Origin: a virus
Length of the DNA stretch: 64,000 nt
IMG/VR virus record: IMGVR_UViG_3300009082_000016
Location: 32,001 to 96,000 of that record
Strand: one strand, 5' to 3'
Position 1 is the stretch's first letter; each line of letters begins with the position of its first letter. Below are positions 6,194 to 42,253 of the stretch, one piece after another. The notes beneath the pieces were generated by a model. The model ran no database searches. It saw only the letters and a program-made list of their open reading frames with translations, and had not been told where the DNA came from. Both the position numbers and the translations under genes were made by a program.

Positions 6194-6991
6194 ATGGCGG
6201 TCCCGCAGGGAACGCACGGAAGCGTGATCGTAACCCGGGGGTCGGAGATGACTCTCTCTGACGCCCGGGAAGCGATCACGGCCTCCTACAGCGGGTTCGA
6301 CCCGCAGACGCTCCGGCGGATCGACCGGAACACGTTCCGGTTCGCCGTCAACGGGAGTCAGATGTTCCGCTTCTGGAACAGCGACATCGCCGAACTGTCC
6401 TACGACGGCAAACACATCCGGCTCTGGACCCGAGGTCACCGCACGCCCACGACCAAGGACCGGTTGAACATGATCCTGCGGTTGCTCGATTTCCCACAGC
6501 AGGTGTTCGTGCAGAACCGGGTCTGGATGATCGGGGACTCGAAGAAGGCGGTCCCGTTCGCCGAAGGCGTCATCGCCCGCATCAACGGGAAGGTTGAACT
6601 GCTCGTCGGTGGACTGGGCGAGGTCGCGAAGAAGAAGGCGCTTGAGATGCGAATCGAGAAGTTCATCGGACACGTCCGGAAGCAGCTCCACAAGGACTGG
6701 CCGGTCCCGGAAGATGGCGACTGCCTGTTGTGCAGACTGCCACTGGCAAAGGGCAACGGGTCCCCGAGCGAAGTGACGCTCGGCGGAGACTCGGATCACC
6801 TGCTGCAACACATGGACCAGAACTACGTCCACGGGTCCCTGCTACTTCGAGCCTACCGGTTCGCCGGCTACGGCTCGCCGGAGTACGTGTTCGAGTCGGA
6901 TCGTAGAGGCAAACGGGTCAGCAGCGCAGTCCGCAACCTGCGCCGTTATCTGAGGAGCCGGCTGATCGACAGCCCGCTGGGAAAGGTGTGA
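6194..6991 (+). CDS. Hypothetical protein
   Basis: Tightly packed in the operon, coherent ORF. Confidence 0.75.
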   Translation: MAVPQGTHGSVIVTRGSEMTLSDAREAITASYSGFDPQTLRRIDRNTFRFAVNGSQMFRFWNSDIAELSYDGKHIRLWTRGHRTPTTKDRLNMILRLLDFPQQVFVQNRVWMIGDSKKAVPFAEGVIARINGKVELLVGGLGEVAKKKALEMRIEKFIGHVRKQLHKDWPVPEDGDCLLCRLPLAKGNGSPSEVTLGGDSDHLLQHMDQNYVHGSLLLRAYRFAGYGSPEYVFESDRRGKRVSSAVRNLRRYLRSRLIDSPLGKV

Positions 6992-20020: not shown

Positions 20021-20725
20021 CTATTGTTCTACCTCAGGTTGGCTAGCCGCCTGCTTCACCCCACTCGCCAAATCCCACTTGTCTCCCACCCGCTTGGTGA
20101 ACTTGAACAGCGTCGGCTTTCGCTTGATCCCGTGACCGACAGCCTTCTCCTTGTTGATGAGGAGCTTGCCGTCCTGCTTGGTGACCTCGTACGGTTCCTG
20201 CTTCTCTCCCCTGAAGGTGCGCGGACCCGTACACGACTTCAGCTCACCGTGCTGCCTGCTGTGGAAATGCCACGGAACGGACCCGACGGGGAACCCCCTA
20301 GCAGCTAGCTTCAGACTGCCGCTGCGTACCTGCTGCTTGAGGTCGCCAAGGCTGATCTGGCGGATCTTACCGATCGTGATGTGGTGGTGCTTGGCACTGC
20401 GTAGGACGTCCCGCTTCGTACCGAAGTTGAGGTAGACCTTGTGCTCGTCGAACTTGGACGGGTCGTGCCAGTCCATCTTGTCGACCACGTAGGCCCGGCG
20501 CGAGTTCTTGTTGGGGCCGACGAACACGTCGAGTGGATCCTTGTCCGCTCCCATCGTTCCCGGGAACGAGCCGTAGTTGTGCGTGTATCGTTCCCGCTTG
20601 TTGATGAACAACGTCCCGATGGGCCGCTCGATGTTGATATTCAGCCCGTGAATACGGGTCTTCCACCGGGTGACGTCACCTTCCCAGGCTGTCTTGAGGA
20701 ATGCCGACTTCTCGGCTAGCCCCCG
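20021..20725 (-). CDS. Inorganic pyrophosphatase-like (InPase) domain; probably the -1 frameshift extension of the upstream gene
   Basis: HGLNINIERPIG...YGSFPGTMGADKDPLDVFVGP...FDEHKVYL; the domain begins upstream of the first available start codon (TTG 20611). Confidence 0.75.
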   Translation of the reverse strand, partial: RGLAEKSAFLKTAWEGDVTRWKTRIHGLNINIERPIGTLFINKRERYTHNYGSFPGTMGADKDPLDVFVGPNKNSRRAYVVDKMDWHDPSKFDEHKVYLNFGTKRDVLRSAKHHHITIGKIRQISLGDLKQQVRSGSLKLAARGFPVGSVPWHFHSRQHGELKSCTGPRTFRGEKQEPYEVTKQDGKLLINKEKAVGHGIKRKPTLFKFTKRVGDKWDLASGVKQAASQPEVEQ

Positions 20726-23703
20726 AAAGGGCTTCCGCCGCCCTGTTGCATCGCCATCTCCTGCATCGCCTGCTGCTCGAGCTGGCGACGGCGGCGATTG
20801 CGGGCACGCTGCGCGAGCGCGTAGCCGGTGACACCACCGGCGACGCCGCCGAGCGCGGACATCTCCGGCATCGGGGTCGCGCCGTAGAGCTTCTGCAGGA
20901 GCGGCAGGGCCGCGGCGCCGGCGAGGGCGCCCCCGCCCGCGGTCAGCATCGGGTGACGCTCGGCGAACCCCATCTGCTCCTGGGCCCGCTTGAGGAAGGC
21001 ACCGTGCTTCGCCTTCCCCCGCGCCCGCTGGTAGGACTGCGACACCGCCGACGTTCCGAGCATCCCGCCGAGACCGCCGGCGAGGCCGGACGCGGCACCC
21101 GTGAACACAGGGTGACGACCGGCGAAGGAGAGGTGCTTGCGGATCTTCTCCTTCTCCTTCTCCGTCATCCCTTCCTCGAGCGAGTGACGCAGGACCGAGC
21201 CCGCCGCTCCACCGCCGATGGGGCCTCCCGCCCAGCCGCCGAGGAATCCGGTGGCCATCGGATGCCGCTCGACCCAGCCCGCCTCCCGGGCCTGCTTCTC
21301 GCGCGTGAAGTCGGCGAACGAGCCCTGCTTGTAGTAGGACTCCGGCGACTTCTTGCCGAACAGCGCCTTCGCGCCCCAGAGACCCGCCAACGCGCCACCG
21401 CCGATCAGGCCGGCGCGAGGAAGGGCCTTCATGAGGGGCTCACCGACGCTCTTGCCCACGAGACGGGGCCGCCTGGCGATGTACCCCGGGGTCTTCTTGA
21501 TCTCCGCGTCGATCGCGGCGCGAGCCGCATCGCGGGCCTGCTGGTCCACGATTTTCGCAGGCATCCCACGAGCGTCGCGCATCGCACCCGTCGGCAGGGC
21601 CTCACGCTCCGCCCACAGGTTCTGCAGTCGCTCCAGCTCACGGGCCTCCAGTCCCCTCTGGGCCTTCCGCCCGACGTGCGCCCCCACGCCCAGGGCCGCC
21701 GCACCGGGGAGGATGCCGATCTCGCGGTCCCGGATCTCCCTCAGGGAGTTCGGCGCCGGAGTGCCGTACTGCGCGTACTTGTACTTCGCCTCCTGGAACG
21801 ACCGCTCCTGCAGGTTGCCCAGGATGGACTCGAAGTCCTCGAGTCCGGCCGTACGCGTGGTCGGGGAGGGGCCGATGCTTCCGCGGGTCGCGTCTCCGGT
21901 GCTGGGGCTGGCGAACGTGGTCGGCTGGCCCGTGACACCGGCGCTCGAACCACCACCCATCGTCATGGGGACGGAGGTGGCTCCACCGCCGGCCGCGCTG
22001 GCAACACCACCGCTGGGCGAACCGACGGCGACCTTCGTGAGCATCGCCCGCTTCTCCGCCATCTGCGGATCGAACGCCGCCATGCGCCGCATGCCGGGCG
22101 CGTACGGGTCCATGCCGCGAGAGATCGGCGACGGGTGCCCACCACCCATCCGGCTGTGACTGAGCTCGTGGCCCAGCACGCCCGAATCCCCACCGCGGGA
22201 GATCGACGCCGGGCCACCGCCGCGCATCCGGCGGTAGATCTCGCCCGCGCCGAGGCCGAGGCCGCCACCGGCCGCCGCGCCGCCCGCGATCGCCAACCCG
22301 CGGCGCTTCTTGTCCTTCATGCCCCGCGTCGCCAGCGCCGTACCGGCGCCGCCGGCCACCGCGCCGCCGAGACCGCCGATGACCCGCGGGTCGGAGAAGA
22401 ACGAACCGATGTCGCTGCTGCTGAGCGCCTGCTTCTTCATGGTCATCCTCGCCTGCTTCTGGAACGACGCCTGGACCTTCATGCCGCCACCACCGGGGAC
22501 GGCAGCCTTGGCCACTTCCGTGGGGGCCGGAGCGGCCGGAGGCGGAGCGGCAGCCACCTGCGGGGCAGCCGCAGGCCCGGCGGCCGCAGGAGCCGGGACG
22601 GGCGCAGCAGCCGGGCCCATCACCATCGACTCGTAGTTCGGGGCCCCCTCCGCGTTCAGCGCGAGCATCTGCTGCAACGCCGGCGTGCCGAGCTGCTGAC
22701 CACCCTGCTGGAGGGCCTGCGCGGCCGCCTGCGGACCGAACAGGGCCGTCATCTCCTGGAGGGCGGCCTGGGACGGCCCACCTTGAGCCGCGGCGTTCGC
22801 GGTCTCGGGCCCCATCATTGCCTGCAGGCCCGCCGCACGGCGCACGGCCTCCAGGGACTGGGTCTCGTCCGTCAGCCCGGCCGCCGGAGCTTCTCCCCTG
22901 GCCACAGGGCCGCCGAAGCCGCCCTGATCGAACCGGCTGGGCATGTCCATGGGCGAACCGCTGGCGTAGCCGCCGCCCATGCCCTGGATGGCGGCCGCCA
23001 GGCCCGGGTCCATGCCCGTCGGGGCCTGCGGCGCGTTCATCGCGCCCATCAGGCCCTCGAGCTGGCCCCGCTTCTCCCGCGGGATGCCCAGGATTTCCTC
23101 CACCACCGAACGGGCCTGCGCTTCCTTGACCGCCCGCGGGGAGAACTCCCCGAGCTTCTGCTTCCTGAGGTTCCGGGGAGCCGTCGGGTTCTGTCCGGTT
23201 CGTTCCACGTGGTGCTCCTTGAGGCCGGGAAAGCGTGCATAGACCTTCGAGCGTACCGTGGCCCGCTCCGCAGGCGTACCGTGCTGCGACACCCTGGCCA
23301 AGGCGTTGCGGGCATGCGGTGCGTCGTGGATCGGGTACTTCTCCTGCTTGGGAAGCGCGAAGTTCTTCGGCTTGATCTTCTCCCGACCGGCAGCCGTCAG
23401 GTTTGCAGCTTCCTTCTGCATGGCTCCGAGCGTACCACGGGTCAGCGCGTCCTGGGAAGCCCGCCACAGGTCGTAGTTCAGGGAGCCGGTCTTGAGCGAC
23501 TTGTACTCGCTCTTCGGCTTGTCGAACTTCGCCTTCGCCTCGCGCTTCCCCTGGGGGGTGCCGAAGCCCTTGGGCGCCTGCCCCTTGGCGTGCGCCTGCT
23601 GCGTGGCGACGGCAAAAGCGACCGACTTCGCCTTCTTCGGTGGGTACGTCTCCTTCATCGAGGGAAGGAGGTGCATAGCCCGGTCGTGAATGGCCTTCGG
23701 CAC
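20716..23703 (-). CDS. Large multi-module putative internal virion polyprotein (995 aa) with DUF6582-like domain and glycine zippers
   Basis: GTG start with SD AGGAG; FALPKQEKYPIHDAPHARNALAR motif; more than 10 K-x-A/G sites. Confidence 0.7.
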   Translation of the reverse strand: MPKAIHDRAMHLLPSMKETYPPKKAKSVAFAVATQQAHAKGQAPKGFGTPQGKREAKAKFDKPKSEYKSLKTGSLNYDLWRASQDALTRGTLGAMQKEAANLTAAGREKIKPKNFALPKQEKYPIHDAPHARNALARVSQHGTPAERATVRSKVYARFPGLKEHHVERTGQNPTAPRNLRKQKLGEFSPRAVKEAQARSVVEEILGIPREKRGQLEGLMGAMNAPQAPTGMDPGLAAAIQGMGGGYASGSPMDMPSRFDQGGFGGPVARGEAPAAGLTDETQSLEAVRRAAGLQAMMGPETANAAAQGGPSQAALQEMTALFGPQAAAQALQQGGQQLGTPALQQMLALNAEGAPNYESMVMGPAAAPVPAPAAAGPAAAPQVAAAPPPAAPAPTEVAKAAVPGGGGMKVQASFQKQARMTMKKQALSSSDIGSFFSDPRVIGGLGGAVAGGAGTALATRGMKDKKRRGLAIAGGAAAGGGLGLGAGEIYRRMRGGGPASISRGGDSGVLGHELSHSRMGGGHPSPISRGMDPYAPGMRRMAAFDPQMAEKRAMLTKVAVGSPSGGVASAAGGGATSVPMTMGGGSSAGVTGQPTTFASPSTGDATRGSIGPSPTTRTAGLEDFESILGNLQERSFQEAKYKYAQYGTPAPNSLREIRDREIGILPGAAALGVGAHVGRKAQRGLEARELERLQNLWAEREALPTGAMRDARGMPAKIVDQQARDAARAAIDAEIKKTPGYIARRPRLVGKSVGEPLMKALPRAGLIGGGALAGLWGAKALFGKKSPESYYKQGSFADFTREKQAREAGWVERHPMATGFLGGWAGGPIGGGAAGSVLRHSLEEGMTEKEKEKIRKHLSFAGRHPVFTGAASGLAGGLGGMLGTSAVSQSYQRARGKAKHGAFLKRAQEQMGFAERHPMLTAGGGALAGAAALPLLQKLYGATPMPEMSALGGVAGGVTGYALAQRARNRRRRQLEQQAMQEMAMQQGGGSPFGG

Positions 23704-41347: not shown

Positions 41348-41856
41348 AAAAAAAGAAGGCGGGTCGTGGTCGCCTCCCCGGGATTTCTCTCCCGAGGAGG
41401 CGACCGAGAACCTACCGACGCGCCTTCTGGGAGGCTGCAACGCCTTTCCCGTACGCGTTCGACGGTCTCTCCGCGGGGGCTGGGCGACCCTGCCGCGGCA
41501 TCCGGCACCGACCCGGTGCCGAGTCCATGCCCTCAGGGATTTCCGTTCTCTCCTTGGGCCAAGCGGAGGACTGCCGCTACCCTCTGGCTGTCCCTGACCA
41601 GAGGTCTCATCCATACAGCACGAACCGGCGTGCGGGACCCCGGGTGGGAGGGTCCCGCACGCCGAATCGAAATCCACTCCCCCGGGAGGAAGGAAGGGAC
41701 CTCCCGGGGGAGCCGCTGCGAACAACGTCGGCTACGCTCCGACGGTGTTCTGACGAACGGGAGCCGGAAGACGGGGGCGGTTCGGGATAACCCTTGCCGT
41801 GCTCCCCCGTCGTTCCGGACTCCCTAGCCGAGCATGTGGTACCACACACCCGGCAC
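41348..41856 (-). ncRNA. Unclassified structured RNA(s) downstream of tmRNA, ending in a hairpin plus U-run
   Basis: About 10 consecutive hairpins, a 7-bp loop pseudoknot, terminal AGAAGGCG/CGCCTTCT-TTTTTT. Confidence 0.6.

Positions 41857-42253
<397 letters not shown>

Follow-up and report, generated by a model that had tools for sequence, protein, structure and literature searches.

How is an enzyme translated whose conserved N-terminal part precedes the first ATG, GTG or TTG codon of its own reading frame? This question is raised by a minus-strand locus of IMGVR_UViG_3300009082_000016, an IMG/VR record (172,723 bp, uncultured phage) that possesses direct terminal repeats and is rated complete. 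The window, i.e. the whole stretch of 64,000 nucleotides (nt) that was analyzed, comprises bases 32001-96000 of this record. At the locus, an open reading frame (ORF) of 995 amino acids (aa), referred to in the following as the carrier, closes at a TAG stop codon, and the overlapping −1 frame continues into a pyrophosphatase-like domain of the InPase family. A previous interpretation made from the letters alone (the sequence-only reading) had explained this arrangement by a programmed −1 frameshift. The present analysis makes such a frameshift the probable answer, which would yield a carrier-enzyme fusion of 1227 aa (about 1230 aa in the earlier estimate) beside the 995-aa carrier.

The mechanism envisaged is simple. 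The majority of ribosomes on the carrier ORF would terminate at TAG, while a fraction would stall with CCU and UUC occupied by tRNA-Pro and tRNA-Phe, move back by one base so that these tRNAs pair with CCC and UUU, and go on in the −1 frame. The resulting fusion would consist of the carrier, the InPase-type pyrophosphatase domain and a small C-terminal domain. The carrier would take limited copies of the enzyme along wherever it is located, probably first to the virion and from there to the host cell. This reading is favored because the slip site is a high-efficiency motif in E. coli, because no promoter or terminator was found between the two reading frames, and because the codon that gene callers use as the start of the enzyme gene, TTG 20611, lacks a Shine-Dalgarno (SD) sequence.

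The slip site and the −1 reading frame

The carrier ORF ends in ...GGC GGA AGC CCT TTC GGG GGC TAG (C-terminus ...SPFGG), which contains the heptamer C CCT TTC in X XXY YYZ phase, as the sequence-only reading had stated. It is the only A/U-type in-frame heptamer of the 995-aa ORF. Such motifs are scarce throughout the genome, whose G+C content is approximately 66%: in-frame X XXY YYZ heptamers number 109 in 159 likely genes (47,943 codons), most of them with G or C at the Y positions, and those of A/U type amount to only about 22 per 47,943 codons, with CCCTTTC occurring in frame twice. From this rate, a shift-prone heptamer located no more than two codons from a stop is expected in about 0.1% of genes. 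In addition, CCT is a minor proline codon that accounts for 7% of Pro codons genome-wide. For E. coli, C_CC.U_UU.C has been listed as a motif of high-level frameshifting, and H_HH.U_UU.Y ranks with the most efficient classes (PMC4066793, Sharma et al.). The hairpin GCCGA-GAAG-TCGGC, which had been noticed 8 nt downstream of the heptamer, was located at the expected site as well (Table 1).

Behind the slip site, translation in the −1 frame gives ...PF/RGLAEKSAFLKTAWEGDVTRWKTRIHGLNINIERPIG..., and the frame remains open as far as 20021. Ahead of the junction it is free of stop codons over 239 codons, and past the TAG over 230 codons. It contains no ATG, GTG or TTG over 276 codons until TTG 20611 is reached. 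From the junction on, its GC content by codon position (0.54/0.49/0.78) is coding-like. The Pfam family InPase (PF18823) matches extension residues 15-131 and profile positions 7-133 of 135 with an E-value of 3e-18 and 66.4 bits against a cutoff of 26.8, which bears out the predicted InPase-like domain. Since the match sets in at residue 15, the domain begins 23 codons before TTG 20611, in agreement with the earlier claim that its N-terminus has no start codon of its own and that the first one lies inside it.

The domain boundary is also visible in the relatives of the extension. An exhaustive search of 1.84 billion cluster representatives returned 4009 of them, and their matches mostly begin at extension residues 14-22 (150 listed of the 4009); apart from the extension itself, none of the matches listed exceeds 46% identity over the InPase domain. 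A word search among proteins of similar length and a scan of viral contigs returned only the InPase protein itself and a distant polyvalent protein (L002). Alignment with 21 short relatives showed that the extension preserves each of the nine invariant residues (G36, Y50, G51, D60, D65, G69, D92, E93 and K95) as well as E32 of the IERP motif, and the conserved segment GL.I.IE.P.G precedes TTG 20611. The AlphaFold model computed on this alignment comprises a β-rich core with block-mean pLDDT values of 90-97 over residues 21-130. Two of its strands are located at residues 20-24 and 27-33, with block-mean pLDDT values of 97 and 91 for residues 21-40. According to alignment and model, the extension contains an InPase domain with its OB-fold core and the conserved acidic metal-binding residues, and this domain is predicted to be pyrophosphatase-like. 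As TTG 20611 lies inside the domain, a protein started there would be deprived of two core strands and of a conserved acidic residue. No GGAG-type SD sequence is present upstream of this TTG. The genes of this phage normally carry GGAGG or AGGAG 5-8 nt before the start, and the carrier itself starts at GTG 23703, 5 nt after the SD sequence TAGGAGAAG. The locus hence has a slip site, an open −1 frame and no independent start for the complete enzyme domain.

The extension harbors the two K-x-A motifs that the sequence-only reading had placed at the junction, EKSA and LKTA, which may mark cleavage sites. At its other end, the small C-terminal domain (WHFHSRQHG...GPRTFRG...AVGHGIKR) shares 55% identity with the C-terminus of P0003, an SNF2-helicase protein, and is also found near the N-terminus of P0061, a protein with a Phage_Mu_F domain. 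It may represent a shared adaptor module of virion-delivered proteins.

Table 1. Coordinates of the features at the carrier-InPase junction (window numbering).
Feature	Position	Strand	Remarks
Carrier ORF, 995 aa	20716..23703	−	GTG start with SD; orthologue is P0174 in L009
Slippery heptamer C CCT TTC	20725..20731	−	X XXY YYZ phase of the carrier ORF
0-frame TAG stop	20716..20718	−	two codons 3' of the heptamer
Hairpin GCCGA-GAAG-TCGGC, 5 bp	20703..20716	−	8-nt spacer; possible weak frameshift stimulator
−1 extension, 234 codons + stop	20021..20725	−	read after the slip, RGLAEKSAF...
InPase (PF18823), type-I pyrophosphatase-like OB-fold domain	20330..20680	−	Pfam, 66.4 bits
TTG, start of the 196-aa ORF chosen by gene callers	20609..20611	−	inside the InPase domain, residue 38 of the extension
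Small C-terminal domain, no Pfam family	20060..20290	−	extension residues 145-221

The carrier is composed of a conserved N-terminal domain, a DUF6582-like unit and linkers rich in Ala, Pro and Gln. It furthermore contains three RHP-x-x-T plus Gly/Ala-rich hydrophobic repeats, and is mostly of low complexity and mostly predicted to be disordered. Its Atlas model (pLDDT 0.49) gave no useful fold match, and its designation as a polyprotein in the sequence-only reading is to be regarded as tentative. Among the Pfam and PHROGs profiles, only DUF6582/phrog_16160 matches the carrier: none of the usual anchoring domains (MuF, portal) was found with Pfam, and no tail-assembly-chaperone family with Pfam or PHROGs. 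The gene stands at the end of a run of large minus-strand genes that includes a Baseplate_J-like protein, and is followed, on the opposite strand, by a sigma-factor-like gene and others. Packaging of the fusion is proposed solely from this position after the Baseplate_J-like gene, and delivery into virion and host would then probably proceed as put forward for the InPase domains of phage polyvalent proteins (see below). The fusion would presumably be the minor product and may set the copy number of the enzyme cargo. In GenBank, no DNA-level similarity to any phage was found for this genome.

The corresponding junction in a diverged relative

The protein most closely related to the carrier has 779 aa and is encoded on a 25.5-kb Logan contig (locus L009). 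The two proteins are orthologous along their length, with 74% identity in the first 74 aa and 49% identity over 178 residues of the DUF6582 region, and synteny extends downstream to a 315-aa gene (48% identical) and the sigma-like gene (69% identical). The L009 carrier ends in ...GGC CAC CCT TTC TAG, i.e. in the identical heptamer with TAG immediately 3' of it. There, the open stretch of the −1 frame starts 76 codons ahead of the TAG and extends 475 codons beyond it. This frame has a coding-like GC content at third codon positions (GC3) of 0.74 directly after the junction (0.78 in the window), and read from the slip site it encodes a different cargo, a DNA-repair enzyme with a LigD 3'-phosphoesterase domain (LigD_N, PF13298, 35.4 bits with the cutoff at 31.1) as well as a ligase OB domain. 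The start assigned by the gene caller, GTG 2640, lies 25 codons inside the LigD_N domain. Frameshifting would yield products of 779 aa and 1256 aa.

As in the window, CCCTTTC is the only A/U-type in-frame heptamer of the L009 ORF, in a locus where CCT makes up 16% of Pro codons, and a hairpin (6 bp) follows with an 8-nt spacer. The comparison with homologues that the sequence-only reading had recommended thus speaks for it, since heptamer and stop recur in L009, the one close relative found, where a weak hairpin likewise lies behind the 8-nt spacer. MAFFT did not bring the two junctions into register, so that the heptamer forms a conserved island in diverged DNA. That the same heptamer would occupy the same place between unalignable flanks by chance appears far less likely still than its presence in a single gene, unless it is conserved. 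Judged from the sequences, the site is therefore kept in one diverged relative with different cargo. The junction is also retained in ten assemblies of the L009 phage, which differ by no more than five single-base changes each; one of these changes falls into the junction region and is non-synonymous and uninformative. An SD-like element common to the junctions of both phages was not found.

Both linkers behind the junction contain an E-K-x-A motif, namely AEKSA five residues past the slip in the window (20695-20711, −) and SEKGA approximately 20 residues past the slip in L009 (2496-2507, +). This would fit a K-x-A processing site between carrier and cargo.

More distant relatives are organized differently. 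L010 and L012 encode a full-size carrier that is directly followed by the sigma-like gene. In L013-L019, seven viral contigs of 113-191 kb, the N-terminal domain of the carrier resides in ORFs of 100-544 aa (from about 10001) within another gene organization that shows no junction of this kind. As far as these contigs can tell, the carrier is modular and split differently across the group. Scans of viral contigs with the 1103-aa neighbor, the L009 cargo and the sigma-like gene, together with metagenome scans, gave no further useful relatives of the locus.

Weighing the alternatives

Several observations speak against a programmed frameshift or limit its expected extent. The stimulatory structure is weak, as the hairpins comprise only 5-6 bp: the 35-nt stretches that contain them reach z −2.79 in the window and −1.48 in L009, whereas longer stretches show no advantage over shuffled sequences (z −0.42 for 116 nt, −0.05 and +1.05 for 65 nt), and no Rfam element matches the site. 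The efficiency of frameshifting may consequently be low. Moreover, both carriers share a C-terminal G-x-P-F, so that the conservation of CCT TTC could partly stem from a constraint on the peptide, although such a constraint would not account for the choice of CCT. The cargo of L009 could be started at an in-frame TTG (2529) that lies ahead of LigD_N and is preceded by a weak AAGG, in which case a frameshift is not strictly required there. Finally, the arrangement occurs in two lineages only and is absent from the distant relatives L010, L012 and L013-L019.

The most obvious alternative is that carrier and InPase are two ordinary genes, the latter being initiated at TTG 20611 as a truncated protein or at ATT (residue 24) or CTG (residue 27), with the heptamer being coincidental. 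The callers picked TTG 20611 in five assemblies, ATGA overlaps often place the downstream gene of a pair in the −1 frame in this phage, and TTG 2529 of L009 is in frame and usable. Yet, the product started at TTG 20611 would be missing the conserved acidic residue and two core strands that are modelled with confidence, and none of the three codons is preceded by a GGAG-type SD sequence, unlike most genes here. Separate genes would also leave a 105-nt 'gap' that nevertheless displays coding periodicity and conserved-domain sequence, and the recurrence of a rare-codon heptamer at the same place in L009 would go unexplained. Independent initiation thus fits L009 but does not fit the window, and as an account of the locus it is unlikely. 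Another explanation, already raised as an alternative in the sequence-only reading, holds that a mutation or an assembly error shortened a G6 run by one G and thereby broke an in-frame fusion, which would make the InPase region a pseudogene or an artefact. Indeed, a G5 homopolymer (20724-20720, −) lies exactly at the junction, and one extra G would restore a single ORF. This run is, however, present in 5/5 assemblies from at least four samples, the four others (three further JGI samples and one Logan run) being 100% identical to the window over the compared stretches of 1.2-4.0 kb; as these five assemblies represent one population, they argue against a random assembly error and are uninformative on conservation. 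L009 moreover shows the same 0-frame stop and −1 continuation in ten assemblies without any G run (TTC TAG GGC), and the InPase ORF is intact over 233 codons with all invariant residues kept and a coding GC3. A lost G is contradicted by these data and highly improbable.

Recoding might also take place elsewhere than on the heptamer, either by P-site slippage of tRNA-Gly on G GGC with TAG in the A site or by transcriptional slippage on G5. The stop codon adjoins the G run, and slow termination favors P-site slippage; RNA polymerase slippage, however, usually needs longer runs of A or T. In contrast to the heptamer, G_GG.N tetramers are not among the shift-prone tetramers of E. coli (PMC4066793), L009 lacks the G run, and the element that both phages have in common is the heptamer. 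For these reasons, slippage outside the heptamer is considered very unlikely. Read-through of the TAG was likewise discarded, as the 0 frame is not that of InPase and runs into a TGA roughly two dozen codons further on. A programmed −1 frameshift on C CCU UUC hence remains the probable explanation of the locus.

Other heptamers of the genome were considered as well. G GGA AAG at 6194-6991 of the window has no more than 11 open −1 codons behind it and resembles the SD sequence of the next gene, and C CCG GGA at 21974-23032 of the genome belongs to an ordinary ATGA-coupled pair. A further site lies outside the window in a 143-aa ORF (genome 109123-109554, −), where G GGT TTC is found four codons before TGA and the −1 frame is open for 75 more codons; it is a candidate for a second frameshift site, such as that of a tail chaperone pair. 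Apart from these sites, the window contains a full-length tmRNA gene (41856-42253, −) according to Rfam (RF00023, 86.9 bits against a cutoff of 47, E-value 2.5e-32); ARAGORN reported no tRNA or tmRNA over the window.

Known recoding systems and polyvalent relatives

Plausible precedents for the arrangement are the capsid proteins 10A/10B of T7, the head protein of phage A2 and the lambda proteins G/GT. In these systems, as here, the slip site is located at the very end of the upstream ORF with the 0-frame stop right after it, and the two products share a common N-terminal body, the longer one being expected to be minor. For Lactobacillus phage A2, a late −1 frameshift that provides the major head protein with a C-terminal extension is cited in PMC10885494. 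In contrast to these cases, with which there is no sequence relation, the extension described here is an enzyme that differs between close relatives. The gene also follows a baseplate-like module instead of lying between tail tube and tape measure, and both this location and the 995-aa length of the upstream ORF set the pair apart from G/GT. Bacterial X XXY YYZ heptamers with a structure 5-9 nt downstream are further known from IS3-family orfA/orfB and from dnaX. Those are mostly A AAA AAG with strong pseudoknots or hairpins and often an SD-like stimulator upstream, whereas the present site has C CCU UUC and a hairpin of 5-6 bp.

Comparable, too, are the gene pairs of MuF-like proteins and VIP2 ADP-ribosyltransferases, which were flagged by PRFect as possible frameshift joins (PMC10885494). 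In a similar manner, the gene of a virion-associated carrier precedes an enzyme cargo gene there, with one fusion or two frames depending on the genome. The differences are that the families of carrier and cargo are others, and that the prediction was made in passing, with no shared slip site described.

The cargo itself links the locus to the polyvalent proteins of phages (Iyer, Burroughs, Anand, de Souza, Aravind 2017, PMC5512222), in which the same PF18823 family is joined to other modules. The InPase domains of these proteins are thought to be packaged and injected, and to clear pyrophosphate or attack a nucleotide-like signal (PMC5512222). Known polyvalent proteins are, however, single in-frame ORFs, and the word 'frameshift' is absent from PMC5512222. 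The join would be made by recoding in the present case, which would give a carrier with and without cargo: the predicted fusion would hold DUF6582, InPase and the small domain as one polypeptide only via a frameshift.

Further associations of InPase domains point in a similar direction. PHROGs lists the domain in 'minor head protein' families, and the tblastn match in Pbunavirus phages partly coincides with the 3' end of the gene for the minor head protein. In P0028 (232 aa, L033 1634-2332), InPase is joined directly to a DUF6582 unit, the one recognizable domain of the carrier, while P0024 (767 aa, L032 1798-4101) combines LigD_N, an ATP-dependent ligase and two InPase domains beside tail-fibre-like genes (Mtd_N). 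Hence, the parts that are distributed over two frames here occur in one frame elsewhere. P0024 also unites the cargo types of the window phage and of L009, which suggests that InPase assists a pyrophosphate-releasing ligation or repair reaction. A 764-aa DUF6582 protein is moreover encoded on a 60-kb viral contig (L008, 3-3533, +), where a large gene of RNA polymerase beta type (phrog_25354, phrog_3015) lies three genes upstream of it.

Taken together, the 3' end of the carrier gene with its C CCU UUC, TAG and short hairpin could, as a more tentative proposal, represent a conserved recoding junction behind which related large phages swap enzyme modules. Frameshifting would then build a polyvalent protein at a set low ratio, and thus load a few exchangeable enzymes for delivery to the host.

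In tailed phages, firm evidence for programmed −1 frameshifting exists chiefly for tail chaperones and a small number of capsid proteins, and we know of no polyvalent protein that is built by a frameshift. The data presented here support the known recoding mechanism in a new setting, that is, an enzyme attached to a large carrier with a cargo-swapping aspect. Gene callers currently truncate such enzyme genes, in this case by 38 residues, and C CCU UUC beside a stop codon could serve annotation tools as an added signal. If confirmed, the junction would account for start-less enzyme genes that follow large structural genes in metagenomic phages, and would provide phages with a simple route to dose and exchange the enzymes they deliver.

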